From the IMG/VR virus record IMGVR_UViG_3300035501_000482: a stretch of 20,216 bases of DNA. One strand, given 5' to 3'. The number at the start of each line of letters is the position of its first letter. Position 1 is the stretch's first letter. This DNA is from an uncultured virus (IMG/VR IMGVR_UViG_3300035501_000482). Lineage: Duplodnaviria > Heunggongvirae > Uroviricota > Caudoviricetes. The notes below the pieces were generated by a model. The model was not told where the DNA came from, searched no databases, and was given only the letters and a program-made list of their open reading frames with translations. Made by a program: the position numbers and the translations under genes. Below are positions 2,911 to 20,216 of this stretch, in pieces.

Positions 2911-2940
2911 CAGTGTAAAAGAAACAAATAAAATTATAAT

Positions 2941-5052: not shown

Positions 5053-5075
5053 TTTTCATTCATATCTAGAGTTTT

Positions 5076-5103
5076 GGGGCCTCCTACGGGAGGTTCCTTT
5101 TTT
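5076..5103 (+). terminator. Intrinsic terminator
   Basis: GGGGCCTCC-TACG-GGAGGTTCC followed by T6 (cUACGg tetraloop). Confidence 0.85.
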
Positions 5104-5159
5104 CTAAGAACTATAGAGTAATAGGTAACTTAATTCATACATTAAAATTTTTAATAACT

Positions 5160-5552
5160 ATGGCAAAGAAAGCTAAAGAAGCTGCTCCTGCAGCAGCAAC
5201 AGAGAAAGATCAGGAAAAGTTGGCAAAGCGTAAGGTCCGTATGGAGGCTATCAAGAATCGCCCAGCAGTACAACGTCCTAACGGTAAGCAAATTGATGTA
5301 GTAGAGTCAGAGGCTGGTACTGTTAAGAATTTTGGTTATCCAGTAAAAGAAAAGAACCAGCATGTTGGAGTATTGGTAACCTCAGTTGCTTATGATAAGG
5401 CTGGTAATGTAATCTCAACTTCAGTAACCTTTGTACCTGGAAACCTTACCGTAAAGAGTAAGAAGGGACATGGAGTTATATGTGCTCCGAAAGCAAAAGG
5501 TGAAAAGGATATTGACGATAACACAGAAGTAGAGGAGGCAGACGAGGATTAA
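5160..5552 (+). CDS. Hypothetical protein
   Basis: 130-aa ORF with an MAKK start, A-rich leader and acidic tail. Confidence 0.85.
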   Translation: MAKKAKEAAPAAATEKDQEKLAKRKVRMEAIKNRPAVQRPNGKQIDVVESEAGTVKNFGYPVKEKNQHVGVLVTSVAYDKAGNVISTSVTFVPGNLTVKSKKGHGVICAPKAKGEKDIDDNTEVEEADED

Positions 5553-5601
5553 TACCCATTAGGCCTAATTTTCATAACTTACATCACCCCAAAAAATCAC
5601 T

Positions 5602-5636
5602 GGCCCATTCCTATTAAGGATGGGCCTTTATTATTT
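5602..5636 (+). terminator. Probable intrinsic terminator
   Basis: GGCCCAT-TCCT-ATTA-AGG-ATGGGCC followed by TTTATTATTT. Confidence 0.65.
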
Positions 5637-5642
5637 ATAATA

Positions 5643-5873
5643 ATGGATGATAAGGTAACTCTAGAGAACATTAAAAGAGGAATAATCATATTAGCCCTTG
5701 ATAATACAATCAAGTCTTACGAAGAAGCTATAGCATTAAATTATATAACAAATCCAGAAGACTTAGATGAAGCTAACTTCGTGATTGATATTTCAAAAGA
5801 GATAATAAATGACCTCAAAGAGAAAATGGATGTAGAAAAAGATACTAAAATTAAGAGACCAAAATGGAGTTGA
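5643..5873 (+). CDS. Hypothetical protein
   Basis: 76-aa ORF coupled to the next gene. Confidence 0.7.
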   Translation: MDDKVTLENIKRGIIILALDNTIKSYEEAIALNYITNPEDLDEANFVIDISKEIINDLKEKMDVEKDTKIKRPKWS

Positions 5874-6217
5874 ATGAACGCATCAATAGGCTAGCAGACC
5901 TTGTATATCTATTACAAAGTTGTTCTGGCAAAAAACCTAAGAATAAGGCAGAAGCTCAAAGTATTAGGCTTCAATATAGTATATTATGTAAAACGGCAAG
6001 GAAAGTAGCATTAGAAATAAAAAGTTTAACCATGGCTAGTATATGGGAAGTAAAATATAAGGTTGACGATAATCCTACTGTATTGGAGGCCAGAATAACT
6101 GGGGTGAATAAGGAACAAATAAAGACTGTAATTCAAACCTATAACCTAAAAGCTGAAAAAGTACAAATCCTAGAAATCCTGGAAATCCCAACTTATATAA
6201 ACAAGGTAAAACTATAG
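5864..6217 (+). CDS. Hypothetical protein
   Basis: 117-aa ORF overlapping the upstream stop. Confidence 0.7.
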   Translation: MELNERINRLADLVYLLQSCSGKKPKNKAEAQSIRLQYSILCKTARKVALEIKSLTMASIWEVKYKVDDNPTVLEARITGVNKEQIKTVIQTYNLKAEKVQILEILEIPTYINKVKL

Positions 6218-6253
6218 TAATATGAATTTCGAAAACCAATAAACTAAATAACT

Positions 6254-6820
6254 ATGGCAAAGAAGAAGATAAGTTCCGAGGAGAGGGCTAAGAACCTGGA
6301 ACAACAAAAAAACAAATCTCCAGAATTTGAGGCTGCACGTAAGGCTTTCCAAAAGTATTTCAAGGATAATGGCCTTGATATCACTAAGGATTATACCAAG
6401 GATAAAGTACATGGCAAAGCAGTAACTAAATTACTTGAAAAGCTTAATAAGGAAAGAGCCAAATTGGCGGCAAGATTCCCAGAGACTGATAAATCAACCA
6501 TGGAACGCATTAAGAAGGAGGCAGAACGTAAGGTTGAAAATGAGTTAAAAGTAGATAAACTACAGAAGAAGCTTAAAGCAGAGAAAGAAAAAAAGGACTC
6601 TAATCAGGCTAGAATAACTAAATATGAATACCCTCTAATAGATGGGCGAGAAATGACTCCAATGGAGAAAAAGAAATATCGTAGTGAACAGCGAAAATTA
6701 AAGAATAAAGCAACACCAAAAGAAAATCAATCTTCAAAGAAGGAGAAGGTTAAGAAGGAAGAAGCTCCAGTAAAGGAGAAGAAACTTAAGAAGATTAAGA
6801 AAGTTAAAGAAGAAGACTAA
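6254..6820 (+). CDS. Hypothetical Lys/Glu-rich coiled-coil protein
   Basis: 188-aa ORF with an MAKKK start, followed by a terminator. Confidence 0.85.
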   Translation: MAKKKISSEERAKNLEQQKNKSPEFEAARKAFQKYFKDNGLDITKDYTKDKVHGKAVTKLLEKLNKERAKLAARFPETDKSTMERIKKEAERKVENELKVDKLQKKLKAEKEKKDSNQARITKYEYPLIDGREMTPMEKKKYRSEQRKLKNKATPKENQSSKKEKVKKEEAPVKEKKLKKIKKVKEED

Positions 6821-6866
6821 ACAAAGTCCAATAGTTGTTCTTTTCATTTTTTTTAGTAGTGTTTTG

Positions 6867-6898
6867 AGCCAACCTATCTTCCGGTAGGCTGGCTTTTT
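6867..6898 (+). terminator. Intrinsic terminator
   Basis: AGCCAACCTATC-TTCC-GGTAGGCTGGCT followed by a T-run. Confidence 0.8.
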
Positions 6899-6912
6899 CA
6901 ATTTAATTAGAC

Positions 6913-7788
6913 ATGGAAGAAAAAAAAGAAACGTTTAAGCCAAAGATGAGGGTTGCATTACTTGAAGATAATGGAGCTATCATATCTGATAGATTGGTAG
7001 ATGCAACTTCTGAATTTTATGCAGGTCCAAAGTTACAACATAAAGGTCCAGTAAGAATAGAAATAACCCTTACAAATAATCTAGATGTAAATAACTTTAA
7101 GAACTACTTGGATCAGCTTGTAGGTAACTTACCAATAAAAGAAAATATTGGTAGAGGAAGACCAACTGCAGGAAGTACTACTAAAACCTTAGAAACTCCA
7201 AGAGAGGATATCCTTACAGATGTAGAGGGTATGGTTAAAGAGGGTAAAGACCAGATGGAGGTAATAGAATACCTTAGAAAGTTAGGATTTGTATTCATAC
7301 TTACTGAGGACTTCAAATATTATTTTAATGACTTTGACTTCAATAAGAAGGACGTTGGAGAAAAGACAGAAAATGGCCAATACCCAGATTCATTCTCATG
7401 GATGGTAAGATGTATTAAAAGAGGAAAAGATCCAAGAACGGATAAGTTTGATCCTATGATAATCTTCGGATTCAATCTCACCAATCAGACACGTAAGGTA
7501 GTTCCCTATCTGTATAAAGAAAGAAAGAAACCACTAAAAGTAGAAACAAGTAAGAGGGTACTTTCATTGAGTACAGTTGAATTTACTAAGCTTCCAAAGT
7601 ATATGCTTGAGGATGAGAGATTAAAATTCTCAGTAGAGTTAAGACAACTTATGCTTACAGAGGATAGGAAACCATCTAAGTTCTTCGAGAGATGGTCAAA
7701 GGATGCTTTGGTACCAGATAAAGTATATGAAGCCCTTTCAAAACGTGGTATTAAATTTAAAAACGACTCCATCAAACATGAGCAATGA
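6913..7788 (+). CDS. Hypothetical protein (contains AT-hook-like GRGRP)
   Basis: 291-aa ORF. Confidence 0.85.
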   Translation: MEEKKETFKPKMRVALLEDNGAIISDRLVDATSEFYAGPKLQHKGPVRIEITLTNNLDVNNFKNYLDQLVGNLPIKENIGRGRPTAGSTTKTLETPREDILTDVEGMVKEGKDQMEVIEYLRKLGFVFILTEDFKYYFNDFDFNKKDVGEKTENGQYPDSFSWMVRCIKRGKDPRTDKFDPMIIFGFNLTNQTRKVVPYLYKERKKPLKVETSKRVLSLSTVEFTKLPKYMLEDERLKFSVELRQLMLTEDRKPSKFFERWSKDALVPDKVYEALSKRGIKFKNDSIKHEQ

Positions 7789-8140
7789 TACAGAAGAGGT
7801 AATAAAGAGAATAGCATCCATCCAATTGGATGCTATTCAACGTATTATCGATAACCCAAGTAAATATAATAAGTTTGCATTACGTAAATTCTTTGGAGTA
7901 ACTGATGAGATGGTAACCCATGAAGCAAATAAGTTAAGAGAAACCTATAAAGGTATAATTGATAAACCAGCAAAGCTTTATTTACTTCATAATGATTACC
8001 AATTTTTAGTATGCTCCCATATATTATTCAGGATGGAAGACACCTGGATATTGGAATTTCCAAACGGAGTAAGAGAAACTTGGGAAATACTAAATAAAGC
8101 ATTATATGACTATCATCCAGAGTTCAAATTAATATTCTAA
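7778..8140 (+). CDS. Hypothetical protein
   Basis: The ORF track gives 7703. ATG 7778 (MSNDTEEVIK), which overlaps the upstream stop, is the more likely start. Confidence 0.7.
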   Translation: MSNDTEEVIKRIASIQLDAIQRIIDNPSKYNKFALRKFFGVTDEMVTHEANKLRETYKGIIDKPAKLYLLHNDYQFLVCSHILFRMEDTWILEFPNGVRETWEILNKALYDYHPEFKLIF

Positions 8141-8144
8141 AGTA

Positions 8145-8408
8145 ATGGAAAGTAAAGATATAAAAGAATTTCTAGACAAGGAGCTAGGTATTAATAATAT
8201 TCCAGTAGAATCAACCAGGGTAGAATTTATTGGGTATGATGAAAAGAAAAAAGAGCTATGGATAACCTTTAAGGGCCGTAAGCTTTATAAATACCCAGAT
8301 ATATCAAAGGAAGTTTTTGAAGACCTAACCCAAGCTCCCTCAAAGGGGAGATGGATTACCACTAACCTAGTAAAAACCAAATCAAAATTTACAAAATATG
8401 TATTCTAA
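8145..8408 (+). CDS. KTSC-domain protein (putative nucleic-acid binding)
   Basis: VESTRVEFIGYDEKKKELWITFKGRKLYKYPDISKEVFEDLTQAPSKGRW matches the KTSC pattern (S..I..IGYD....L...F.....Y.Y..V....Y..L..A.SKG). Confidence 0.85.
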   Translation: MESKDIKEFLDKELGINNIPVESTRVEFIGYDEKKKELWITFKGRKLYKYPDISKEVFEDLTQAPSKGRWITTNLVKTKSKFTKYVF

Positions 8409-8841
8409 TAACGAAACCAAAGATGGCTGCCTTATTATCCTAATCGGGGTATTAATAATTCTTATCATGGTACTTGGCAGTATACCACAAAGTAAGAAAG
8501 ATACAAATAGTGAGAATACTGAAAAACTGGTGTATTATAAATCCCCGTTAGGAAAAAATGAAACTCTTGGCAATATTCAATTGGAGGATTTAGGTATTAA
8601 CGCTAGTAATCATGAAGTACCCTCTAATGAAGAGTATAAAGTAATACTAGAAGCTGAGGATGAGGATTATTGGGAAGTTGAAAAGCTTGGTGATACTTAT
8701 TACAAAGTTAAAAGGGAGGACCGAGACAAGGATCTCCATGGACCAGATGAGTTCGAAACTGAAGAGGAAATTGGATCTTGGGAAGACCTATGTCAGTATG
8801 CACTGGATCATAACAGGATCATCAATGTTATATCAAAGTAG
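8398..8841 (+). CDS. Hypothetical membrane-anchored protein
   Basis: N-terminal hydrophobic stretch LIILIGVLIILIMVLG, with an acidic remainder. Confidence 0.75.
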   Translation: MYSNNETKDGCLIILIGVLIILIMVLGSIPQSKKDTNSENTEKLVYYKSPLGKNETLGNIQLEDLGINASNHEVPSNEEYKVILEAEDEDYWEVEKLGDTYYKVKREDRDKDLHGPDEFETEEEIGSWEDLCQYALDHNRIINVISK

Positions 8842-8869
8842 TAAATCACCCAAGCTCCAGGAGCAAAAA

Positions 8870-8943
8870 CCTCAGCTTTGATAAAAAATAAGTGATTTTT
8901 CTTGCAAAATATTTGGATAAATCAAAATAAAGTAGTACTTTTG
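8870..8943 (+). promoter_or_regulatory. Bacteroidota-type promoter P2 with CCTCAGC box
   Basis: CCTCAGC 8870; TTTG 8912-8915; 20-nt spacer; TACTTTTG 8936-8943. Confidence 0.85.
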
Positions 8944-9003
8944 CATATCGAAAATAAAAATTCGATATAACATTATTTATAAACATATAAAAAAATTAGT
9001 CGT

Positions 9004-9420
9004 ATGAAAAATAACAATTCAACTAGCACTGCTTCCAAACTGGAGGCTTTGGTATCAAACCAAATCTCAACAGCTATCGAAAATGCTAAGGCTTCTAAGA
9101 AACAGCCTAAAACCAAGAAGGAATCTAAACCAGAACCTGAAGCTAAAATCGAGGAAGTTACAAAGGAAGTAACCAACCAACAGAACTTAGCTATAGTAGA
9201 GAAGGTAATCAGTAACCGAGAAGTCAAATACCTTTATCCTGCAGATGTAGTTGATACTCTTGCTCGCAAAAGATGGAGACAAGCTACCAGAAACGAATTG
9301 CACACACTCGAAAGAAAGATGCACAGAATCCAGGATCAAAACTCCAAGGAATATCAGGAAGCTAAACGGGAATACGAAAAATTCTTGGCATCTCACTTAA
9401 AGCCCAATCAGATTGCTTAA
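9004..9420 (+). CDS. Hypothetical protein
   Basis: 138-aa ORF between P2 and a terminator. Confidence 0.85.
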   Translation: MKNNNSTSTASKLEALVSNQISTAIENAKASKKQPKTKKESKPEPEAKIEEVTKEVTNQQNLAIVEKVISNREVKYLYPADVVDTLARKRWRQATRNELHTLERKMHRIQDQNSKEYQEAKREYEKFLASHLKPNQIA

Positions 9421-9422
9421 TG

Positions 9423-9450
9423 GAGAAGGGGACTACGGTCCCCTTCTTTT
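9423..9450 (+). terminator. Intrinsic terminator
   Basis: GAGAAGGGGAC-TACG-GTCCCCTTC followed by TTTT. Confidence 0.85.
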
Positions 9451-9488
9451 CAAACTAAATTAATTACCCACTACAAAACATAACAACC

Positions 9489-9749
9489 ATGGCAACTGCA
9501 GCATACAGGGTTTTTGGAGATAAGGTCTTGCTCAAATGGAACAGAGACTTACTAGAATTACACAAAAGGGTCCTAACAACCTACTTAGTATCAAAAGGTA
9601 TAAAAGCTTCTACAAGGAAGAAGTTCTTTATAATCTATGATATGGATGTGACAGAAGACAATATCAAAGCTATATTTTATAAGCCCACTGACTTAGTAGT
9701 AAAAGCTCTGGTAATGGATAGAATAAAAGATATAATAGACATTTTATAG
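9489..9749 (+). CDS. Hypothetical protein
   Basis: 86-aa ORF at the start of a tightly packed gene run. Confidence 0.7.
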   Translation: MATAAYRVFGDKVLLKWNRDLLELHKRVLTTYLVSKGIKASTRKKFFIIYDMDVTEDNIKAIFYKPTDLVVKALVMDRIKDIIDIL

Positions 9750-9751
9750 GT

Positions 9752-10165
9752 ATGTATACAGAACAAGTTGGAAAGCTTTTCATTGGAAAGTTTAAAATGA
9801 AAATAAAGTATGTGCCTAATGATAAACCAGAAGGAACCACTCTTGGAGAACTTCCTACATTCTGGGATTTTAATCAGGTAAAGAAGGTATATAAGTTATT
9901 TACTGAAGAAGTAATAACGGATATACTCAAGATCAAGAGGCAATATAATAAACAAACACTTCCAGATTGGTATATACTGGGTAGATATAACCCATTAACC
10001 GATGAATTCGTTATGGATAAGGTTAAATATACCCACATGGCTTTTATTACTGGGCTTCCAAAAGGACACGTAATATATGCAGGAAAATCCAGTGAAGCTA
10101 TACGACCAATGGAGATATATAAGGATAAGTTTAGACAATACATTTTACACCTAATAAAGATATGA
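9752..10165 (+). CDS. Hypothetical protein
   Basis: 137-aa ORF with ATGA coupling to the next gene. Confidence 0.75.
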   Translation: MYTEQVGKLFIGKFKMKIKYVPNDKPEGTTLGELPTFWDFNQVKKVYKLFTEEVITDILKIKRQYNKQTLPDWYILGRYNPLTDEFVMDKVKYTHMAFITGLPKGHVIYAGKSSEAIRPMEIYKDKFRQYILHLIKI

Positions 10166-10488
10166 TAACACCAAACGGTAAAGAAATTAAGACAGAAAAC
10201 GAACTCTTCATGGAGAGATTCGGAGAAGAATGGAACAATCGATTAGCTGACGTAAAAGATTATAATGATTTTAGGCAGTTAGTTGGGAGTATGGCTGATA
10301 AATATATTATACTTAAGAAGCCAAAAGTTAAAAAGAATAAGATAGTTGGAGATAAGCAATGGAATTACTTCTATGCTGCTTATATTACACCAAGTAGAGC
10401 TAGGCTTTTCCCAGAGAAGCAGGCTTGGATATCAAATCGGAGGGAAATAGATGCGCAACGGAAGCAAAACCAAGGACCTTCACGGTAA
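10162..10488 (+). CDS. Hypothetical protein
   Basis: 108-aa ORF with an ATGA overlap. Confidence 0.7.
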   Translation: MITPNGKEIKTENELFMERFGEEWNNRLADVKDYNDFRQLVGSMADKYIILKKPKVKKNKIVGDKQWNYFYAAYITPSRARLFPEKQAWISNRREIDAQRKQNQGPSR

Positions 10489-10741
10489 TCTATACATGAT
10501 TAAAGGATGGGAAATACTCCCATCCTTTCCCGTTTATGATAAGTATACACATCTATCTTTCAGTAGGGATGTTATCAATCATATAAAGTATGTAACTTAT
10601 GGCCATAGGTTTGATGAGTACTTTATGCTAGTGCTAACCTGCTATGGGCTATGGGTTAAGTTTGAATTGAATTTTATAGAGCACAACGATTTAGAAGATA
10701 TAAGAAAAAGCTATATACATGGTAACAAATATCATTCGTAA
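10451..10741 (+). CDS. Hypothetical protein (start uncertain)
   Basis: 96-aa ORF filling the gap between neighbours. Confidence 0.6.
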   Translation: MRNGSKTKDLHGNLYMIKGWEILPSFPVYDKYTHLSFSRDVINHIKYVTYGHRFDEYFMLVLTCYGLWVKFELNFIEHNDLEDIRKSYIHGNKYHS

Positions 10742-11621
10742 CCCAAGACCAATGGGATTAACCGCTATGTCTCAGGAGTATCAGAAGACAAAAGAAGAAG
10801 GTACTCTGATGAAAATATACCAATATATAATCAATCAGTGGTACGTGAACACGGGTAACTTATGTGGAACTTACTATGATGTAAGTGAACTAGCCACTAA
10901 ATATGGTATACCAAAAGAGATGATCACTCTGTATATGAGAGATACCGTACTTAATTCCAAGTTATGGGATAAGGATAAGCAAGAGCAAATGGTACAAGGC
11001 CTGCTTGGAGAACAATTAATGTGGGCAATGGAGGACAGGATGGAAATAGTTAACCAGGTTAACCTATTAAAAAGATCTCAGGGAGGTAAGTATACCCCAT
11101 TTATAACTGCAGAGGTAAATAAAGCCATGAAACTTAGATTGGAGGCCTCTACCTCATTACAGTCAATAGTAAGGGGATTAACTGGAGGAGGTACTTATAA
11201 TATCTTTAATCAGTTCAATCAGCAGAATAATACGACTAATCTAGAGCAAAATAATTATATTACCATAGAACAAGCAAGGGAGATAATTCAAGAGTCCTCT
11301 AGATTAGAAGATAGAAGCGAAGAGGCAAAATACCTTGAAGCAAAATATGATATTGAAGCCCTGCCAGAAGTATGCGCCACAAAACAGACTGGGATTGATA
11401 CCTCTAAAGAAGGCCTTACGCTAAATAAAGCAGAGATAGAAAGTATAGTTGGAGATTACAAAGGAGCAATAGAAATATCCTCAAAGGAACACCATGAGAT
11501 CAGAAGGGAAATTGAGGAAAGAATAGGCCAAGATGAGGAGGACCCTGAGTTGGATATTTACGAAGATCCTATGCCAGATGAAGAAGTTAGTATTAGTTCA
11601 CAATATTTAATGCCACAGTAG
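10719..11621 (+). CDS. Hypothetical protein with HTH-like segment, coiled coil and acidic tail (terminase small subunit-like architecture, unconfirmed)
   Basis: 300-aa ORF with YYDVSELATKYGIPKEMITLYM (HTH-like) and an N/Q-rich linker. The function is inference only. Confidence 0.7.
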   Translation: MVTNIIRNPRPMGLTAMSQEYQKTKEEGTLMKIYQYIINQWYVNTGNLCGTYYDVSELATKYGIPKEMITLYMRDTVLNSKLWDKDKQEQMVQGLLGEQLMWAMEDRMEIVNQVNLLKRSQGGKYTPFITAEVNKAMKLRLEASTSLQSIVRGLTGGGTYNIFNQFNQQNNTTNLEQNNYITIEQAREIIQESSRLEDRSEEAKYLEAKYDIEALPEVCATKQTGIDTSKEGLTLNKAEIESIVGDYKGAIEISSKEHHEIRREIEERIGQDEEDPELDIYEDPMPDEEVSISSQYLMPQ

Positions 11622-11622
11622 T

Positions 11623-12282
11623 ATGTTTAATATTTTCAAAAGGAGAAAGCCAAGCGGTAAGCAAAACCAGGTTTACCTAAGCAGTGATAACCGAGTTATA
11701 TTAGGGGGTCCTTATGGATTGTTAATCCGTAAAATAATAAGGGATCTGAGTATAGTAAATAATATCTACGATGATGATGTGTATAGTTATATTTTGGATG
11801 ACTATAATGAGAATTACGAGGTATATGATTTAGTACCATTATTATTGCCATGCAGAGTACCAAAATTAATGTATGCTAGTCACCGTGACATGACTTTAAA
11901 GGCCTCCAAGGCAATATATAATGAGATATATAAGTCGGTTTTGGTTAATGCCGATGACTTAATCCCAGAATTATTCCATATAACTAAGGTACATGAAGAT
12001 CTATTAATGGGCCTGTATGATATATCAATACCATACATGGATAGAGCTGAAGTAGATTCAGACGAATTTAGAAACCTAATCCGTTACCATTATTTAAAGG
12101 AATGGGATGCTTTCTTTTTTGGTAACATGGACACTATTCAAGAGAACGTAGTGGCTTTCGATAACCTTATTATATCATTTATTAAATCTAGAGCGTCAAA
12201 CGAAGATAATAAACAAACAATACATAATGTTATCGAAAGAAGACTAGAAAAGATCGCAAAGGATGCCCAGCGAGACGAATAA
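11623..12282 (+). CDS. Hypothetical protein
   Basis: 219-aa ORF. Confidence 0.8.
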   Translation: MFNIFKRRKPSGKQNQVYLSSDNRVILGGPYGLLIRKIIRDLSIVNNIYDDDVYSYILDDYNENYEVYDLVPLLLPCRVPKLMYASHRDMTLKASKAIYNEIYKSVLVNADDLIPELFHITKVHEDLLMGLYDISIPYMDRAEVDSDEFRNLIRYHYLKEWDAFFFGNMDTIQENVVAFDNLIISFIKSRASNEDNKQTIHNVIERRLEKIAKDAQRDE

Positions 12283-12346
12283 CCTCAGCTTATATAAAAA
12301 TAATTAGTAATTTATTTGCTATATATAAAATAATGTAGTAATTTTG
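12283..12346 (+). promoter_or_regulatory. Bacteroidota-type promoter P3 with CCTCAGC box
   Basis: CCTCAGC 12283; TTTG 12315-12318; 20-nt spacer; TAATTTTG 12339-12346; 41 nt identical to P1. Confidence 0.85.
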
Positions 12347-12375
12347 CAGCGTAAAATTATAAATAATTAGTCGAT

Positions 12376-13038
12376 ATGATACACACATTAAACGAGTACA
12401 CCACCCTATATAACTTTACGGGTGATAACGAAAGCCCAATACAAAAACTTGAGATGGGCTTTTTCAAAAGAAATCGGGGCAGCTTACTATTCCATGCTGA
12501 TAACTTGATTAATGCTGGTTACGAATGCAACTCATTATATGGAGTCTTCAACATGTACAAGATGGTACATAAGCTGCAAACAATCCAAGGAAAAGAACAG
12601 GATCTCTACCATATTAGATTGGTATTCCTAATTGGATCCTATGAATTATTCGCTGAACTCCAGGTTAATACAAAACAATATAACGAGGATCCCGCTAAAA
12701 CATGGTTTGACTTACAGACTCCTAAAGATACCAGTAAATATCTTGCCCTAGATAATGGGTGGATATTACAATGGGAGGATGCCTTGAACCATTTATCAAG
12801 GCTTAACCTAATGGAAACTTGGATACAAGGCCTATCATTTATAGCTGCTTATTATAAACTAATGGATAAAGAGGGCTTAGAACTATCCTATGAGGAAACT
12901 AGAAATATGGACAAATTATATGAAGTACTTAAGGATTTAACCCATCTTATGGAAGCACCAGGCAAACTGGACTTCCTATACCATAGCCAAAATATTGCCC
13001 AAGCTATATCCGATAAGATGCACAGACTATATTACTAG
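12376..13038 (+). CDS. Hypothetical protein (putative early gene)
   Basis: 220-aa ORF between P3 and a terminator. Confidence 0.8.
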   Translation: MIHTLNEYTTLYNFTGDNESPIQKLEMGFFKRNRGSLLFHADNLINAGYECNSLYGVFNMYKMVHKLQTIQGKEQDLYHIRLVFLIGSYELFAELQVNTKQYNEDPAKTWFDLQTPKDTSKYLALDNGWILQWEDALNHLSRLNLMETWIQGLSFIAAYYKLMDKEGLELSYEETRNMDKLYEVLKDLTHLMEAPGKLDFLYHSQNIAQAISDKMHRLYY

Positions 13039-13068
13039 GATTTCCATACTGATTGTTTTATTTGTTCT

Positions 13069-13101
13069 GGTGGCTGGGTTAAACATTGCCCAGCCATCTT
13101 T
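13069..13101 (+). terminator. Probable intrinsic terminator
   Basis: GGTGGCTGGGT-N8-GCCCAGCCATC followed by TTT. Confidence 0.7.
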
Positions 13102-13109
13102 ACCTAGAA

Positions 13110-13172
13110 CCTCAGCTTTTATAAAATAATTTGAAAATAATTTGGTACATTAAAAATTTTGTCGTACCTTTG
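13110..13172 (+). promoter_or_regulatory. Bacteroidota-type promoter P4 with CCTCAGC box
   Basis: CCTCAGC 13110; TTTG 13141-13144; 20-nt spacer; TACCTTTG 13165-13172. Confidence 0.85.
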
Positions 13173-13199
13173 CAGTATAAATAATAAAGATATAAATAT

Positions 13200-13772
13200 A
13201 TGAATAATATGCAACCAACCAGAACTATAATGCCTATCAAGGCTCAACTTAACGGGAAAATTCCCTACATGAAACCTCTTATGGATAACAATGGTCATAC
13301 CATACTAAAGGCTAATAACCTAAGAGCTATACCCTCAAAATTTATACAGGCTTTACCAAAGCCAGCTCCATCTTATTATGCTTACTATGACCTAAGTAAT
13401 TACACCCATTATGAATTACTCCAGTTACTAAACCAGGAGATGCACAAACTAGAATTAACTTATATAGAAGAAATACATCAGGACCCATACCTAGAATTAG
13501 GCACTGGTTACGAACCAATATATTACGGAGAATGGGTATACTTCTTACTTACCCTAGCCTATATTATAAGTGAACATACCTATAATTTCGTTTACCACGA
13601 ATATGAGGCACTCGTAAAACAAAAGCCATTTAACAATGAATATTTCTCTGGAGTACTATTCAACAGTAAGGGTGCCAGAATACCAACTTTAAAATCCACT
13701 CTATTAGAGATACAGAGGGATCTAGAGTTATTCTATCATTACTACAGAGAACTATATTCGAATGACAAATAA
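13200..13772 (+). CDS. Hypothetical Tyr-rich protein immediately upstream of the hairpin array
   Basis: 190-aa ORF after P4. Confidence 0.8.
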   Translation: MNNMQPTRTIMPIKAQLNGKIPYMKPLMDNNGHTILKANNLRAIPSKFIQALPKPAPSYYAYYDLSNYTHYELLQLLNQEMHKLELTYIEEIHQDPYLELGTGYEPIYYGEWVYFLLTLAYIISEHTYNFVYHEYEALVKQKPFNNEYFSGVLFNSKGARIPTLKSTLLEIQRDLELFYHYYRELYSNDK

Positions 13773-14292
13773 AGTTTCATATTTATATATGCTATCCACC
13801 GAGGTGCTCTCGGGGACATTGGTAATGCACTTGGGAAAGACCATTACTAAATGATACAGCATTCTTTACAGTTTTCACAATGATTAATATCCGAAGCAGA
13901 GCTTCTGCGAAGACCCTCTGCTATTTTAAACTAGAGCATAAACATTTTGATTATATCTTGACCTATATACCCCTGAGAAGGGACTGGTCATCACATTATT
14001 CATAATTAATTGGTTATTAAAAAACACCATACCTGGCCTCTGGGAAGATCCCAGGTTATTAACTAGAACATTCATGATACTTTGAATATATTTTTATCCA
14101 TCCCAGGCCCTTGAGAAAGCCCCTTGGCTTTTACTTATAACGAACTGTATTTTCATGTAAGACATATTATTCATATTCGTAGCTTGGCTCATGTGAATGC
14201 CCCAAGCTTTTACAAGCAAAAACACCGTGACTAAATCATATATTTTAAACAGATTAAGCTAGGCCCTTGAGAAAGTCCCTAGCTTTTATTTT
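13773..14292 (+). ncRNA. Putative small-RNA array: 7 conserved GNGA-tetraloop hairpins separated by unique antisense-like spacers
   Basis: Hairpins at 13822-13847, 13895-13922, 13959-13990, 14031-14056, 14103-14127, 14181-14208 and 14256-14285. The stems covary and there is no ORF. The last hairpin is followed by a T-rich tract. Confidence 0.75.
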
Positions 14293-14336
14293 GTAACCCA
14301 TTCTAGGCAATGCCCAACCATGGACCTAGACCCAAA

Positions 14337-14410
14337 CCTCAGAATTTTGAAAATAAAATGAATTTTTTCTCTAAAATATTTTGATATTTAAAAATAATTT
14401 CGTAACTTTG
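14337..14410 (+). promoter_or_regulatory. Bacteroidota-type promoter P5 with CCTCAGA box
   Basis: CCTCAGA 14337; TTTG 14380-14383; 19-nt spacer; TAACTTTG 14403-14410. Confidence 0.8.
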
Positions 14411-14436
14411 CAGTAAATAATTAGAGATATAAATAT

Positions 14437-14571
14437 ATGATTAAAAACAATGAAACCAACCGCTATCCGGGCACCCAATGCCCTAAACCAAATGCCCAAG
14501 GCAATTGCCGGGGCTCCGAGATTAAACTAATCACAGTATTAACAAGACAACAATTAAAATCAACAGTATGA
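14437..14571 (+). CDS. Putative 44-aa small protein (not in ORF track)
   Basis: First ATG after P5. Its leader (AGATATAAATAT) is identical to that of the 13200 gene, and its stop overlaps the next start (ATGA). Sequence: MIKNNETNRYPGTQCPKPNAQGNCRGSEIKLITVLTRQQLKSTV. Confidence 0.45.
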   Translation: MIKNNETNRYPGTQCPKPNAQGNCRGSEIKLITVLTRQQLKSTV

Positions 14572-15137
14572 TATACCAAGCATTTTTATATCCTGGAAGC
14601 TCACAAGATTTCCTAAACCAGGCTTCAAAAGAATTTCCAAAAGATACAGTATCTAACGCTATGCGTAACTACTTCACTAAGTGGATTACCCAAACCAACC
14701 AGAGACCAGAAATCGAACTGGCAGGAAACAATAACTATGGTCCTTACTTAGCACTAGAACATGCCATAGCTAGCCTATCTGAAAAGATAGAACAAACCAG
14801 CTTACTAATAATAGCCCATGACGGTTTCCTATCAGTAACCCAGGAAATGAAACCAAGTAACAACCGCTACGTATGGCTATTATCTATATTCTTAGCTTAT
14901 CCAGATGGTACTATAGTTGATCTACATCAAGCTTACAGTACAAGAGAAAAAGCTATTGAAGCTCTACAAGATAGGATACAACTTTCCAGAGACTCCTTCT
15001 CGGGAGATATACTAGATCAAGGACGTATAACCTACAATGATCCCGATCACTATAGCTGGATCAAAACAGAAGGGGTTTACTCAGAGATCAAACTAACAGT
15101 AGACTCATTAAAACTAGACTTATATGCCAACCACTAA
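14568..15137 (+). CDS. Hypothetical protein (putative early gene)
   Basis: 189-aa ORF. Confidence 0.8.
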   Translation: MIYQAFLYPGSSQDFLNQASKEFPKDTVSNAMRNYFTKWITQTNQRPEIELAGNNNYGPYLALEHAIASLSEKIEQTSLLIIAHDGFLSVTQEMKPSNNRYVWLLSIFLAYPDGTIVDLHQAYSTREKAIEALQDRIQLSRDSFSGDILDQGRITYNDPDHYSWIKTEGVYSEIKLTVDSLKLDLYANH

Positions 15138-15723
15138 TTTAAATTACACACATATGAAACCAAATAACTTTGTCCAAAGAGTTAAAGTAACTCTTTTCCT
15201 AGACCAGAACGTAACCAATACATATGAGTTCAACATATACGATTCTATCATAGACTTCGTATCAGACCAATACAGCTTAAAACAAATCCTAGAAATGGCC
15301 ATGGACGAAGATAACATGACCCTTAACAATGGAGAATACGGAGAATTTACCAATTACCACGAGTTCTTCAACTTAAAGAAAGACTTAGACTCAGGCCTAG
15401 TAAAGGATTACTCACTAGAAGTACATATAACCCATGAAACCAAGGGTAACGACTACCTATCAGTAAAGGATCTTCAACTAGAGATTACCAGAGCAGCCAA
15501 AGCCTATCTAGAGAATCAAATAGATAACGCACTTATAGATATTAGGAGTAACTTCGGAAATTCACTAGAAGACTTAAGAACTACCCTATTATCTTTGAAA
15601 GAAATATCTGATGAAGATCCAGACTACTCTCCAACTAATATAGGTAAGAAACTAGTAAATAAACTGGCAATACGAATAGCTAACGAACTGAACATCCTCG
15701 ACTATAAAGAACTACTCAAATGA
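15124..15723 (+). CDS. Hypothetical acidic protein (start may be 15154)
   Basis: 199-aa ORF with ATGA coupling to the next gene. Confidence 0.8.
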   Translation: MPTTNLNYTHMKPNNFVQRVKVTLFLDQNVTNTYEFNIYDSIIDFVSDQYSLKQILEMAMDEDNMTLNNGEYGEFTNYHEFFNLKKDLDSGLVKDYSLEVHITHETKGNDYLSVKDLQLEITRAAKAYLENQIDNALIDIRSNFGNSLEDLRTTLLSLKEISDEDPDYSPTNIGKKLVNKLAIRIANELNILDYKELLK

Positions 15724-16073
15724 TATACAGATACCTAGACTCCAAAGAATGGCAGGGCTTCGAACTAATAATCGAAGAGAACTGGATAGAAAACCCAGAA
15801 TGCTACCAGCTAGCTAATCACTGGCATCACCTCAGGGTAGTAGAAACCCTCATCCAAGAACTAATAAAGAAAAGCCACGGTAAAATCAAAAGCCAGGATC
15901 AACTATACCAAATGGATATACCAGACCAGACCCATATAGAAAAACTAATATGGAAAGCCTACAAGGCCATAGCTAATAAACTATACCCAGAAGAGAAAGC
16001 CTGGCCAGGCAATCAATCCGACTCAAACCTATTCTGGGCAATCCACGATTACTCAATCCAGAACCCAGAGTAA
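15720..16073 (+). CDS. Hypothetical protein
   Basis: 117-aa ORF followed by a terminator. Confidence 0.8.
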   Translation: MIYRYLDSKEWQGFELIIEENWIENPECYQLANHWHHLRVVETLIQELIKKSHGKIKSQDQLYQMDIPDQTHIEKLIWKAYKAIANKLYPEEKAWPGNQSDSNLFWAIHDYSIQNPE

Positions 16074-16082
16074 GACAAACAG

Positions 16083-16110
16083 AAGCCCTCCTAAATCCCG
16101 GAGGGCTTTT
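16083..16110 (+). terminator. Intrinsic terminator
   Basis: AAGCCCTCC-TAAATCCC-GGAGGGC followed by TTTT. Confidence 0.75.
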
Positions 16111-16439
16111 CCATGTTACCCTCCCACTCCAAACACAAAAAGAAATCCTAAACAAACCCCACAAATCTCAGACCCACAAACAAAAATAGAGGCCCACAAA
16201 TCCTAATACCCATACAAATAGAACCCACTCACCCCAAACAAGAAACAATAGGAAAAACAAAACCCACCAAACACCTAACCTGAATATACCAATAATATAA
16301 TACCCAACAAACGTACATATACATAGGCCTATAATAAATAACCCATTATAAACTAACCCTTCCTTTCCTTTCCTTTCTCCTTTTTTCCCTTCCATTTCAG
16401 CAATCCACTTCAATTTCTAACATCAGGTAGCTCAAAACT

Positions 16440-17100
16440 CATATCCTAGTTCCGGGGGAACGCCACCCCTGGGGCCTTGAGTTGAGGTTGCCTAATCCCG
16501 AACCAACCCACTGTCCACCCCACAGCTATCTAGCCCTATTAGAGGTACTTTCCGGCTATCCCAGCCAAATTTCCCAAGGGCCCAGCTTGGGGCACCCCAA
16601 ACCCCTAAATCCCAGCCTTAATCCCAGTCAAGGCCCAGACTAATCCCCAAAAGCCACAACGCTATCCCTTGAGACACGTAATGTCAGTTTAAGGCCGCTT
16701 TTTTAACACGTAGCTCATTTTATCGCGCCCTATACAAAAGTTAGTACTTTGGGGCTCAGGATTTAGGGGATTAGGCCTTAAATCCCAGAATTTTTGGGGC
16801 CTCAGAAGCTAGGATTTAATAAGGATTTAGGGCCCCATACCAGTAAATCCCTTTGCCTAAGAGGGGCAATTTAGGGGCCCCAAATGACCTAAATTGGGGC
16901 TCAGGATTAGGCAACTTTTGCATTAATTTCAAGGCCCCAAGGAGGCAAATCCCAGTCCTTTTAAGGCCCCTAATTTGGGCAAATTCAAGGCCCCAAATTA
17001 AAGCCCCAGTTCTCCCTTCAAGGCCCCAGAGGCCCCCAAAATATTAAAGATTAGGGGCCCCTAATGGAAGTTATCCCATGCCCAAATCCCATGCCCAGAA
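16440..17100. repeat. GC-richer non-coding region dense in short direct and inverted repeats
   Basis: AAGGCCCC x4 (16931, 16963, 16987, 17020); TTGGGGCTCAGGATT x2 (16749, 16894); palindrome ATTAGGGGCCCCTAAT at 17050-17065; nested inverted repeats. Confidence 0.7.
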
Positions 17101-17163
17101 CCTCAGCTTTTATAAAATAGTTAGTAAAATATTTGCTCAATTCTAAATTATTTCGTACCTTTG
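17101..17163 (+). promoter_or_regulatory. Bacteroidota-type promoter P6 with CCTCAGC box
   Basis: CCTCAGC 17101; TTTG 17132-17135; 20-nt spacer; TACCTTTG 17156-17163. Confidence 0.85.
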
Positions 17164-17204
17164 CAGAGTATTAAAAACATTATTAATTTAAAAAATATAG
17201 AACA

Positions 17205-17687
17205 ATGAAACAATTAAAACCCACCGTACTGCTGCTCCCAATCAACTGGACTGCATCGGACAACTTCCTTACAATCGGAACTGCTATCTACAAGGACATC
17301 GACTTCACCCTTGCCAATGGCAACACTTATTCCTGCTCAGGGGTCATTGCCATTAACTACAACAAACAACTTAACGAACAATTCCTTACGGATGAACTCG
17401 ATGCTTTCCAAGATCACTTACAGGATCTAGGGCTTTCACTACCAATACCAGAATCCTATATCCCAGACAATGAAGCTGCACTTGCATGCTGGGCCAATTA
17501 CCTATTGCTCCTAGGATCACAGGTACTGGATGCCAATGCCTTTGAAACCTACAAAACCGAACTACTTAACAACTGCGATAACCTTTATCCAGACGGAACG
17601 GAATTTCTCCAGGATCGCTATCACCAGGACTTCTGCAATAACATCATCGAATCACTTAACAATCAATATTCATTAACAGACTTTTAA
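17205..17687 (+). CDS. Hypothetical acidic protein (putative early gene)
   Basis: 160-aa ORF after P6. Confidence 0.8.
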   Translation: MKQLKPTVLLLPINWTASDNFLTIGTAIYKDIDFTLANGNTYSCSGVIAINYNKQLNEQFLTDELDAFQDHLQDLGLSLPIPESYIPDNEAALACWANYLLLLGSQVLDANAFETYKTELLNNCDNLYPDGTEFLQDRYHQDFCNNIIESLNNQYSLTDF

Positions 17688-17689
17688 CA

Positions 17690-17932
17690 ATGGCTAGAAC
17701 TATCTCAACAATTGCCCAGGACATACTTAAGTCCTGGGTTAAACCCTCACCCTATGCAATGCCCTACATCAAGGCTATGCTTACTATTAATTCTACGGAT
17801 CCCAACACCAAGTATATCCTGGAACCCGCTAGAGACATAATACTATACTTCCTTGCCAATGCCCAGACATTCCGAGGCGAGGACGCTAGAAGACTTAAAA
17901 CTGAACTTAAACAACTTATTAACTACAAATAA
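17690..17932 (+). CDS. Small conserved-looking phage protein of unknown function
   Basis: 80 aa. The pattern R.I..IA..I...W......A.PY..AM...YFLANA.T.RG..ARR.K.ELK resembles, from memory, a recurrent phage hypothetical family. Confidence 0.8.
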   Translation: MARTISTIAQDILKSWVKPSPYAMPYIKAMLTINSTDPNTKYILEPARDIILYFLANAQTFRGEDARRLKTELKQLINYK

Positions 17933-17944
17933 ACCAATACAACT

Positions 17945-18409
17945 ATGGACAAAAAGATTATCATTGACTACTGCACAGAGTACACATTACAGGGCATTAC
18001 ACTTCACCACAACGATATCGATGACCCAAGACTACCAGAGAACGATACCGTTTGCTTCACTGGGTACTACATTATCGACCAGGATACCGATATACATGCC
18101 TTAGTCACCCAAAACCTGGAATACTACAAGGACCTTATTCACAAACGCATTGCCCAGGGTTTAACTTCTGGGGATGACGATTACGAGGACTATTTCCCTT
18201 GCCTAACGGATGTACTGGGCCAACTGGTTTCACTATCCCCAGATCCCAACGATGCAATCCTGGTACAGGACTTTATCAGATCCCAGGAATTTGCCCAACT
18301 ATGCAACATGGGTATGGTCGATTGCCTAAACTCGGATCCCCAAACTTTCCTAGACTATTGGAAGAAACGGGTACTTGAAAACACAAGCAAATACTCTTTC
18401 CTTCTCTAG
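17945..18409 (+). CDS. Hypothetical acidic protein
   Basis: 154-aa ORF followed by a terminator. Confidence 0.8.
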   Translation: MDKKIIIDYCTEYTLQGITLHHNDIDDPRLPENDTVCFTGYYIIDQDTDIHALVTQNLEYYKDLIHKRIAQGLTSGDDDYEDYFPCLTDVLGQLVSLSPDPNDAILVQDFIRSQEFAQLCNMGMVDCLNSDPQTFLDYWKKRVLENTSKYSFLL

Positions 18410-18413
18410 AAAC

Positions 18414-18443
18414 AGGGCCCAGCTACTTATGCTGGGTCTTTTT
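18414..18443 (+). terminator. Intrinsic terminator
   Basis: AGGGCCCAGC-TACTTAT-GCTGGGTC followed by T5. Confidence 0.8.
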
Positions 18444-18635
18444 GTGTGAACATACCAATAACATACTTAGCTAGCTAGGTGGGTGGATTAATGGCCATTA
18501 CTGCCTTCAAGGTACCAGCCAGGATTTGCTCGGGCTTCAAGGATAGCTGGTAATATCACTTAATGGCCCCTGAGGTTTAAGTGAATAGAACCATTCAGGG
18601 GTACCTGTACTTGATCCCTATGCCTAGACCCTATG

Positions 18636-18698
18636 CCTCAGCTTTTATAAAATAGTTAGTAAAATATTTGCTCAATTCAAAAAAAAGTCGTACCTTTG
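18636..18698 (+). promoter_or_regulatory. Bacteroidota-type promoter P7 with CCTCAGC box
   Basis: CCTCAGC 18636; TTTG 18667-18670; 20-nt spacer; TACCTTTG 18691-18698; first 43 nt identical to P6. Confidence 0.85.
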
Positions 18699-18740
18699 TA
18701 TTGAAATATAAAACATTATTCACTTTAAAGATTTATAAAT

Positions 18741-18989
18741 ATGAAACAAAAAGAAGTACAACAAACAATCTTAGAAAAGATTGCAGAGAGTTCTAAAAAA
18801 GAGCTATTAAAAAATCACATTGCCCACCTCGAAACCTACTTCAACCTGCATCAAACGGAGATCCTCACTCAGCAACGGTTCTTCCGCTACTACAATGCAC
18901 TGGTTACCGAGGACAACATCCAGGATCTCTACTTCCTGCCAATCGATCAATTTATCACATCATTTATTAACTACATTAACACTCTCTAA
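18741..18989 (+). CDS. Hypothetical protein (putative early gene)
   Basis: 82-aa ORF after P7. Confidence 0.75.
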   Translation: MKQKEVQQTILEKIAESSKKELLKNHIAHLETYFNLHQTEILTQQRFFRYYNALVTEDNIQDLYFLPIDQFITSFINYINTL

Positions 18990-18991
18990 CA

Positions 18992-19489
18992 ATGGAAACT
19001 ACAAATATCACTTACATCTACTCAGAAGTTTACGAATTCGATCTCCTTGGTGCTACTTGCACCTTGGATATCGACAATGCCCAACTCAGGGGACGTGCTT
19101 ACGGATTCGATCTTACTAACAAGGAACAACTACAGAAAGCTCTCATGGATAACATCCAATGCCTAATCAACCTAGTAAACTACAAAACTCTCTACGACGA
19201 CATGGCAGAGGACTACATCCCAGACTACATCGATTGCCTCCTAAAGCTTGCTATTATTGCTTTCGATAACGATTCACTAAACGGGCTGGATATCTTCAAA
19301 TCTACCCTAACTATGATATACCAACTTTGGGTAGCCAACCAACAATCATTTAACCTGGGCTTTAAACTGGATGCCTTCCAACAGAAGAACATCTCCAGGA
19401 TCTATGCTTACTACAGGAACTTTGTTAAGAACGATAACGAAGACATCCTCGACTTTGCTCAGGAATCCCTCAATCACTTGCATCACTAA
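18992..19489 (+). CDS. Hypothetical acidic protein
   Basis: 165-aa ORF followed by a hairpin. Confidence 0.8.
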   Translation: METTNITYIYSEVYEFDLLGATCTLDIDNAQLRGRAYGFDLTNKEQLQKALMDNIQCLINLVNYKTLYDDMAEDYIPDYIDCLLKLAIIAFDNDSLNGLDIFKSTLTMIYQLWVANQQSFNLGFKLDAFQQKNISRIYAYYRNFVKNDNEDILDFAQESLNHLHH

Positions 19490-19496: not shown

Positions 19497-19526
19497 GCCC
19501 ATCCATATATGCCATGGATGGGCTTT
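19497..19526 (+). terminator. Probable intrinsic terminator
   Basis: GCCCATCCAT-ATATGCC-ATGGATGGGC followed by TTT. Confidence 0.7.
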
Positions 19527-19627
19527 ACTGTGTAACATACCAATAAGGCCATTAGCTAGCTATTTTACACCGTTAATGGCCCCTATACCCATTATGGCTT
19601 AAGCCAGGTATTTGATGGTCCTAAGCA

Positions 19628-19662
19628 TATCCCACCAGGCCTATCCCACCAGGCCTATCCCA
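19628..19662. repeat. 14-bp tandem repeat x2.5
   Basis: TATCCCACCAGGCC at 19628 and 19642, partial at 19656. Confidence 0.8.
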
Positions 19663-19944
19663 GTCCCATAATACCACTATGGCTTTCACCTAGCCAGACC
19701 CAAGTCCGCCAGAGCCTACCGAAGCCCGGTAATTTAAAGCCAAAAGGGGCCCCGCCGCTAGAAACCTATTTATTTATCCACCTTCTAGTTATAAGTTAAT
19801 TTAGAATGGTTGCTCTAGACCCAAAAAGGCCATGCCTATGGATCCACTATTCTGTATGAATGCAAAGATACCAATAGTATCAAAGCGGATCCCTAGCGGC
19901 GGATTTTCGTGGTGGTTTTGCATTATATAGGGGATTTTTAATCG

Positions 19945-20094
19945 ACTACATTTTATATAGGGGATTTGTAGTTTTACAATTTTTATTAGTTGAGTTAAAA
20001 ACTAATAAAACCATACCTATTTGTAGTTGAACTACATTTTATGTATTGAATTGTAGTTTTACAATTTTTATTAGTTATGCTAAAAACTAATAAA
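19945..20094. repeat. Degenerate ~85-bp direct repeat x2
   Basis: ACTACATTTTAT...TTGTAGTTTTACAATTTTTATTAGTT...TAAAAACTAATAAA starting at 19945 and 20031. Confidence 0.8.
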
Positions 20095-20216
20095 CTACAA
20101 AAAAGAATTAGTTATGTAGTTTAAAGGTATAAACTACAAAAAAGAATTAGTTATGTAGTTTAAAGGTATAAACTACAAAAAAGAATTAGTTATGTAGTTT
20201 AAAGGTATAAACTACA
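20091..20216. repeat. Perfect 39-bp tandem repeat, 3 full copies plus a partial copy (runs off window)
   Basis: TAAACTACAAAAAAGAATTAGTTATGTAGTTTAAAGGTA at 20091, 20130, 20169 and partial at 20208. Each unit contains the 9-bp inverted repeat TAAACTACA/TGTAGTTTA. Confidence 0.95.

Follow-up and report, generated by a model that had tools for sequence, protein, structure and literature searches.

What does an array of hairpins do directly behind a small gene of a gut phage, and is the protein encoded by that gene its partner or its target? This question was raised by a 20,216-nt stretch of DNA from an uncultured virus of the class Caudoviricetes (IMG/VR record IMGVR_UViG_3300035501_000482; the whole stretch is called the window here), in which gene 13200, encoding the 190-aa protein P0001, is followed by a 520-nt untranslated stretch harboring a series of hairpins separated by variable spacers. 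The initial annotation had proposed that the product of this gene may process the hairpins or act as their effector, or else that the gene is their main regulated and possibly toxic target in a negative feedback loop, comparable to a type III toxin-antitoxin (TA) system. Our analysis points to the target role: since two spacers carry antisense seeds against its start, gene 13200 is best described as a target of the array and not as a demonstrated partner enzyme. We see about an even chance that the array is a 3' untranslated region (3'UTR) antisense element belonging to the transcript starting at promoter cassette P4, which would limit translation of the phage's own cassette operons. As part of this reading, it would most likely be an expanded version of a seed-plus-hairpin tail that is conserved in the phage family.

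The transcription unit starts with the following features:

13110..13172, plus strand: promoter cassette P4, with the upstream element CCTCAGCTTTTATAAAATA, a TTTG and the -7 box TACCTTTG at 13165-13172 (TAnnTTTG); aligned copies at 14337, 17101 and 18636.
13190..13211, plus strand: leader and translation initiation region of gene 13200, with ATG at 13200 and 13209; target of spacers sp5 and sp3.
13200..13772, plus strand: ORFan gene 13200, encoding P0001 (190 aa, isoelectric point (pI) 6.2), without homologue or domain.

P4, the leader of about 22 nt, open reading frame (ORF) 13200-13772 and the non-coding stretch from 13773, right after the TAA stop codon, are contiguous, and this ORF is the sole long one between P4 and the array. 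Its length in a phage genome with a GC content of 36% and its GC content by codon position (0.43/0.27/0.34), which is in line with that of the neighboring genes, mark it as a real gene. The cassette begins with CCTCAG and ends with the TAnnTTTG box; using a regular expression, we identified seven copies in the window (at 2847, 8870, 12283, 13110, 14337, 17101, and 18636) and 176 copies in 78 of the 83 sources of the whole phage family. CCTCAG frequently adjoins the 3' end of the preceding terminator hairpin. The promoters, with their -7 TAnnTTTG and upstream TTTG, are of what we take to be the Bacteroidota type, and judged from this type, the hosts appear to be Bacteroidota. Between 13172 and 14403, no TAnnTTTG box was found on either strand, and a consensus terminator scan made no call in 13773-14292, including the stretch between the stop codon of gene 13200 and the array. 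In these respects our results agreed with the initial annotation, which had described P4, a single 190-aa ORF (13200-13772) and the array as contiguous, had seen neither promoter nor terminator between gene and array, and had let the first spacer begin at the stop codon.

The array spans 13797-14285 with a unit period of about 73 nt and consists of seven GNRA-capped hairpins (H1-H7, with H3 as a variant) and one plain hairpin (H0):

13799..13815, plus strand: H0, plain 5-bp hairpin with a 5-nt loop, in place of the single 3'UTR hairpin of the relatives.
13819..13850, plus strand: H1, GNRA class, GGGA loop.
13895..13922, plus strand: H2, GNRA class, GCGA loop, followed by ATTTTA.
13958..13990, plus strand: H3, variant with GAGA loop, 4-bp inner stem and a larger, asymmetric internal loop.
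14031..14056, plus strand: H4, GNRA class, GGGA loop; outer stem weak in the ensemble fold.
14103..14127, plus strand: H5, GNRA class, GAGA loop, followed by CTTTTA; outer stem weak in the ensemble fold.
14181..14208, plus strand: H6, GNRA class, GTGA loop, followed by TTTTA.
14256..14295, plus strand: H7, GNRA class, GAGA loop, with the tail TTTTATTTTG; its putative terminator role is read from the sequence.

H1, H2, and H4-H7 share a common architecture, namely an outer stem of 5-9 bp, different in sequence in each copy and always G-C closed, a 2x2 internal loop with C-N on the 5' side and N-C on the 3' side (drawable as 2x3 in H5), and an inner stem of three pyrimidine/purine base pairs capped by a GNRA tetraloop (in this order GGGA, GCGA, GGGA, GAGA, GTGA, and GAGA). 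From H1 to H7, the loops follow each other at distances of 74, 68, 67, 71, 80, and 76 nt. The units are thus 67-80 nt long with unrelated spacers, and their alignment revealed a mean column identity of 52%, the hairpin core alone being conserved. When the six hairpins were aligned, 9 of 28 columns were invariant, while the outer stems differed among all of them; compensatory changes with both sides altered were present in 7 of 10 stem pairs, and 95% of the stem cells were paired compared with 68% in shuffles. A motif scan of the 20 kb recovered six hairpins of this architecture, with starts at 13819, 13895, 14031, 14103, 14181, and 14256, while the plus strand had no further hairpin with a 2x2 internal loop and the minus strand lacked this architecture altogether. 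With the three-core pattern, the window gave a single match and 100 shuffles gave none.

A covariance model of the class (R1) scored the six window hairpins at 33.7-40 bits and the next best candidate at 16.2 bits across 1.47 Mb of relatives, which yielded no R1 hairpins besides those six. Searches with the three-core pattern resulted in one match in IMG/VR, a coding repeat, and in 19 loci in GTDB genomes with a best R1 score of 16.9 bits, and a generic periodic-hairpin scan of the relatives gave chance matches only (seven inspected, mostly coding). GNRA clusters in related loci L014, L021, L022, and L069 looked like chance, and the one that was inspected (L014) turned out to be coding sequence. 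Tandem array detection with TRF found none within 13773-14292, Rfam cmscan of the whole window (E <= 1) left 13100-14300 without a match, its only two weak matches lying elsewhere, and no tRNA was found. Small ORFs in the spacers (10, 3, and 1 codons) were discarded as inconsistent from unit to unit. GNRA loops, the G-U pairs in H1 and H5, and runs of four U after H2, H5, H6, and H7 are plus-strand signs and indicate that the array RNA is read on this strand. The terminator scan calls none of these hairpins, as their two-tier stems lie outside its definition; nevertheless, H7 with TTTTATTTTG is likely the terminator of the P4 transcription unit. The usual terminators of this phage (after genes 13038, 16073, 18409, and 19489) are plain GC stems with loops of 7-10 nt and without GNRA/internal-loop architecture, and the array hairpins are a class separate from them.

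In the spacers, which are AU-rich and mostly single-stranded, we identified short antisense seeds, which in three of seven spacers are exact over 12-14 nt and centred on start codons:

13774..13787, plus strand: seed of sp0, directly 3' of the stop codon; exact 14-nt antisense to 18734-18747 (start of gene 18741) and homologous to the conserved 3'UTR seed of the relatives.
13992..14004, plus strand: seed of sp3, antisense to 13199-13211 at 12 of 13 positions, with an exact stretch of 10 nt against 13199-13208.
14077..14098, plus strand: sp4, a decayed anti-leader, with 17 of 22 positions against 13189-13210 and 12 of 13 against 14426-14438; it no longer has the anti-start CAT.
14163..14176, plus strand: seed of sp5, exact 14-nt antisense to 13198-13211, covering both ATGs of gene 13200 (M-N-N-M).
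14234..14245, plus strand: seed of sp6, exact 12-nt antisense to 14431-14442 (start of gene 14437).
14431..14442, plus strand: region around the start of gene 14437, which heads cassette P5; targeted by sp6.
18734..18747, plus strand: region around the start of gene 18741, which heads cassette P7; targeted by sp0.

Cassettes P4, P5, and P7 each have one of the three strong targets as their first gene, and each strong seed fits the specific post-ATG sequence of a different gene. Based on these matches, the target genes are probably gene 13200 itself (sp5 and sp3), gene 14437 (sp6), and gene 18741 (sp0). The earlier claim that the start of gene 13200 has complements in two spacers was therefore correct (exact 14 nt for sp5; 10 nt exact, or 12 of 13, for sp3), and the proposal of this gene as a regulated target was retained, although it is not the sole one: the starts of genes 14437 and 18741 are matched as well. 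None of 2000 dinucleotide shuffles produced a second-best match of 14 nt, a third-best one of 12 nt, or at least three spacers at 12 nt or more. Natural 45-nt tiles from outside the array reached 12 nt in 1 of 437 cases and 14 nt in none, and the orientation controls of the array spacers (sense, reversed, and complement-only) did not exceed 8 nt, so that all three kinds of control reject chance for the array seeds. At the seed borders, complementarity breaks off abruptly, unlike the pattern expected from an inverted duplication, and the seeds revealed an unpaired probability of 0.62-0.71 compared with an array average of 0.48.

For comparison with relatives, we used the best 80 of 356 IMG/VR stretches encoding a relative of the 300-aa protein 10719-11621 (56-62% identity). 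In 15 of these 80 loci, representing nine sequence variants, we identified a related element with a single unit, arranged in the order stop codon of a cassette-led operon, seed CCAGTTGTTTTCATATC, covarying hairpin, and next cassette. The seed of the relatives (CCAGTTGTTTTCATATCTATCC) is near-invariant, and the GC hairpin after it measures about 36 nt and shows compensatory changes in its stem; the post-stop seed is thus conserved across 15 loci while the adjacent stems vary. In 14 of the 15, it is antisense to one to four gene starts per locus over 11-16 nt including the ATG, and in 10 of those loci the targets include the gene heading its own operon, whose start codon lies about 980 nt upstream. 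Distal cassette genes are matched, too, e.g., over 16 nt in L016. Spacer sp0 and H0 of the window align to this single-unit element, with TTTCATAT invariant and CTATCC kept, and the differences between the seeds of window and relatives (A/G at -3; GAAAC vs. GAAAAC) are mirrored in their respective targets. The genes upstream of the element in the relatives (e.g., 12918-13902 in L018) are unrelated to P0001. A second conserved 3'UTR seed, TGGTTTGCATAGTT, was seen in the relatives at 4293-4306 of L018, between a small hairpin and a strong terminator; it is an exact 14-nt antisense to the start of the cassette-led gene at 12305, and the seed occurs in nine loci (L018 and eight more).

Folding of the putative transcript 13178-14296 paired the start site of gene 13200 with sp5, located 963 nt from its target, in both the minimum free energy (MFE) and the centroid fold, and in the ensemble 14.3 of 18 start-site nucleotides were expected to pair within the seed region. 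Full transcripts of the relatives L018, L016, and L022 revealed 12, 12, and 16 start site-seed pairs in their MFE folds, so that this pairing appeared in four of four full-transcript folds. The AU-rich seed duplexes of 12-14 bp were calculated at -10.6 to -15.7 kcal/mol, sp0 being the only seed whose start-site target is also the best duplex in the window. Altogether, the sp5 seed, the MFE and centroid folds and the recurrence in relatives lend in silico support to the earlier proposal that gene 13200 is a regulated target in a negative loop.

Based on these data, a mechanism can be proposed for the 3'UTR antisense element. Ribosomes could bind at the start site before synthesis of the 1-kb message is complete; once transcribed, the tail would fold back in cis on its own 5' start site and close the ribosome entry site, which is proposed to limit the protein burst per mRNA. 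Either intact or trimmed by nucleases to hairpin-protected pieces, the tail may also pair in trans with the start sites of sister operons. The hairpins would serve as fold insulators and 3'-end protectors, and the last one with its U-tail as terminator. Bacteroidota mRNAs are largely without Shine-Dalgarno sites, which makes the start codon region a natural control point. If true, this would be a compact RNA-only means to time or cap early gene expression.

Sequence and computation show the hairpins as a family, the antisense seeds with their specific orientation, and the homologous single-unit element of the relatives, whereas the pairing in cis and in trans and the roles of the hairpins are inferred. 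Several observations weigh against the proposal, which as a whole is computed. For sp1 and sp2, no start codon in the window was matched, and sp4 is decayed; the covariation of seeds and targets is based on two lineages only; and folds of 1.1 kb are unreliable, with H4 and H5 outcompeted in the ensemble fold of the array. RNAduplex energies do not discriminate start sites, sp0 excepted: sp5 reached -14.8 kcal/mol at its start site vs. a window best of -20.8, and the -10.6 kcal/mol of sp6 at its start site is not the window best. Family-wide, antisense matches of at least 12 nt over start codons numbered 86, 58 of them non-coding, vs. 184 (32 non-coding) in the reversed and 69 (36 non-coding) in the complement control, an excess that is not clearly above the controls and hence not established; the only setting above controls was at least 14 nt in non-coding DNA, with 16 antisense matches vs. 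5 and 0. Since this global excess is weak and the loci are phylogenetically redundant, we relied on the specific conserved element and not on the global trend. Finally, the conserved core (G-C closure, C-rich 2x2 loop, GNRA) exceeds what blocking a nuclease needs, and the model leaves it unexplained.

Some of these points would suit a passive tail, in which a stack of hairpins bordering a variable island would act in leaky termination or in mRNA stabilisation, the start complementarity being a by-product of AT-rich leader-like sequence and unit duplication without regulatory role. Its 4-U tails on four hairpins, traces of block duplication (starts of sp2 and sp4 81% identical, seeds of sp3 and sp5 related), position in a 5.4-kb island missing from the closest relative, the weak family-wide excess over orientation controls and the non-discriminating duplex energies all fit. 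We nevertheless consider a passive tail unlikely, because all three kinds of control (shuffles, natural tiles, and orientations) rejected chance for the array, the strong seeds are each fitted to the post-ATG sequence of a different gene, the post-stop seed is conserved in 15 related loci next to varying stems, and the usual terminators of the phage lack the GNRA/internal-loop architecture. A reading on the minus strand, on which the spacers would be sense remnants of inverted leader-plus-start copies or small ORFs, is very unlikely. ORFs of 43 and 49 aa do overlap the array on this strand, and 14094-14225 (minus) contains ATGAATAATATG with the same first four codons (M-N-N-M) as gene 13200, but the minus strand has no TAnnTTTG box between 13172 and 14403, the leader similarity ends at the seed borders, the two G-U pairs would turn into A-C mismatches, the hairpins would fall inside the small ORFs, and both GNRA loops and U-tails read on the plus strand.

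The unexplained core leads back to P0001. In a partner-protein model, P0001 would bind or cleave the GNRA hairpins and release or load hairpin-tagged antisense guides in a Cas6-like way; we regard this as quite improbable. It would account for a core conserved while the outer stems covary, which suggests a specific reader of the core, and it agrees with gene 13200 and the array being in one transcription unit. Neither P0001 nor the GNRA hairpins were found in GenBank record MT121964.1 or in any of the 80 related loci, and the two, both unique to this phage, may be linked. An engineered system of the same logic, the Cas6f-based MORTISE, is reported to work (PMC13478208). Equally improbable is a reading as a natural multiplex antisense guide array, with handle hairpins of conserved shape and guides against the phage's own early-operon starts, in which a dedicated factor, possibly P0001, would read or process the handle; if true, the phage would shut off translation in a timed way by a CRISPR-array-like device without Cas, a natural counterpart of those engineered arrays. 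P0001 itself, however, gave no hint in this direction. It matched only itself in a word-index search and in an exhaustive HMMER search of 1.84 billion representative proteins, tblastn against 50,697 phage records and a search of IMG/VR revealed nothing beyond itself, and there was no match to Pfam, PHROG, PADLOC, or NCBIfam (cut-off for Pfam and PADLOC E <= 0.1), none to PDB sequences below E 0.65, and no usable feature match in the ESM Atlas, the Atlas model having a predicted local distance difference test (pLDDT) score of 0.43. In this point the initial annotation, which had recognised no domain, was right. The structure check it had suggested was uninformative because of low model quality: the AlphaFold2 single-sequence model reached a pLDDT of 47.5 with a helical C-terminal half and, too poor to judge, gave 0 Foldseek matches at E <= 0.001 against PDB and BFVD. 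With a pI of 6.2 and 8.9% lysine plus arginine, among the lowest in the window, the charge of P0001 is atypical of an RNA binder, and neither sequence nor model searches revealed a mark of an RNA-binding or RNA-cutting enzyme. Co-occurrence of homologues with hairpin arrays, also suggested earlier, came down to n = 1, as no homologues were found. The expectation that a true partner would not be replaced by unrelated neighbors in related phages failed in part: the homologous seed-plus-hairpin element follows unrelated genes there, so that the antisense function does not need P0001, while the GNRA array itself occurs only here. The proposal of an effector or processing protein was thus not supported, lacking a homologue, domain, or fold match, being poor in basic residues, and having unrelated genes in its place in the relatives. 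Searches for Cas families or Cas6-like proteins among the proteins of the island and the cassette operons downstream of it (12376-19489) gave no PHROG, Pfam, PADLOC, or NCBIfam match, the 80-aa ORF 17690-17932 being compared with PHROG only. Least probable of all appears a type III TA-like module, in which the ORF would be a toxin checked by the adjacent RNA. Known systems of this type (ToxIN, CptIN, and TenpIN) have near-identical 36-40-nt repeats upstream of an endoribonuclease toxin that cuts them, with a terminator in between. The likeness consists of a protein gene beside repetitive structured RNA in one locus and operon, here with complementarity to the start codon of gene 13200, but with regard to how identical the repeats are, to the gene order, and to the toxin family, the comparison does not hold: the window units are 67-80 nt long with unrelated spacers, not near-identical tandem repeats (no TRF array, 52% mean column identity), they lie downstream of the gene, and P0001 matches no toxin family (no ToxN, AbiQ, or other PADLOC/Pfam match at E <= 0.1). 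In addition, the seeds also aim at two other genes, and P0001 has no transmembrane-grade segment hinting at a membrane toxin (maximum 19-residue Kyte-Doolittle mean of 1.08).

The 3'UTR antisense reading has parallels elsewhere, as a few bacterial operons are already known to limit themselves post-transcriptionally by 3'UTR-derived RNAs, and classical phages to have single antisense RNAs. The c4 antisense RNA of phage P1 is cut out by RNase P and controls the antirepressor for lysogeny. It is encoded in the immI operon on the same strand as the genes it blocks (c4, icd, ant1/2) and acts through short complementary segments (PMC8198154); the window array resembles it as a phage antisense RNA with short complementary segments in the same operon as its targets, but c4 lies upstream of them, while the window seeds are downstream, multiple, and split by a conserved hairpin class. 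In Vibrio cholerae, the 3'UTR-derived small RNAs (sRNAs) OppZ and CarZ, processed by RNase E, are reported to repress their own operon in a post-transcriptional negative feedback (PMC7398697). Each is an antisense element without own promoter that sits at the untranslated 3' end of the operon it regulates and pairs with its own transcript to inhibit translation, and the window array resembles them in this layout: at the sequence level, the array lies in a 3'UTR without own promoter, and in silico it pairs with its own translation initiation region via sp5. Differences are that the array is phage-borne, is predicted from sequence, comprises seven hairpins with at least four seeds in place of a single sRNA, and also matches sister operons. 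With CRISPR arrays and MORTISE, whose engineered Cas6f guide arrays direct guides to translation initiation regions for translational repression (PMC13478208), it shares hairpin handles alternating with variable antisense guides on one transcript; the window hairpins, however, are not identical in sequence but keep core and shape, and the guides match the phage's own genes. In limited keyword literature searches, we found no precedent for hairpin or antisense arrays in phages. New here is the multi-unit, phage-borne form built on a conserved hairpin class, and what sets it apart from the known cases is a lineage that keeps an anti-start seed behind the stop codon of a cassette operon, one member of which has a seven-hairpin array with seeds at three operons. 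The array offers clean seed-target pairs, and its conserved hairpin core calls for a binding partner.

In regard to the genomic context, window genes 629-12282 are collinear with GenBank record MT121964.1 ("Phage DP SC_6_H4_2017", 75.5 kb, human faeces) and with a large group of IMG/VR contigs of about 85 kb. The following 5.4 kb (12282-17690) have a counterpart in 0 of the 80 related loci, and L013, the closest relative, has its homologues of gene 11623 and gene 17690 only about 270 nt from each other; therefore, the array sits in a lineage-specific island. It comprises gene 12376, gene 13200, the array, genes 14437-16073, a GC-rich non-coding kilobase, and gene 17205. With its mostly small, acidic proteins, it looks like a lineage-specific accessory island, and no relatives of the neighboring proteins 12376 and 14568 were found in IMG/VR. 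A metagenome scan for the window's own contig yielded 10 loci, each of them a chance match of 22 nt lacking protein similarity. The sole basic protein of the island is the product of gene 14437-14571 (44 aa, pI 9.9, two cysteines), which heads the next cassette and whose start is the target of sp6. The product of the sp0 target gene (18741-18989) and that of 9489-9749 are small paralogues (29% identity over 65 aa, E 3e-8). Apart from that, 4561-5052 encodes a 163-aa protein with 44.8% Asp+Glu and a pI of 4.1 by GAA/GAT-rich tandem repeats, which is kept in 63 of the 80 relatives. GC-rich non-coding stretches with dense short motifs (AAGGCCCC, GGGGCC, and GATTTAGGGG) were seen at 16400-17100 and 19500-19760 as well as at 1-1100 of L012, and a similar AAGGCC-rich stretch is located at the start of the MT121964.1 record. 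The end of the window (19945-20216) displays two 85-nt repeats (79% matches) as well as a 39-nt repeat in 3.3 perfect copies that extends past the window end; this may represent an origin or a terminal region. The MT121964.1 record ends inside an exact repeat of about 90 nt (L011 34058-34150 and 35413-35501), consisting of its own promoter cassette and a gene start, so that this record probably breaks at the repeated cassette.

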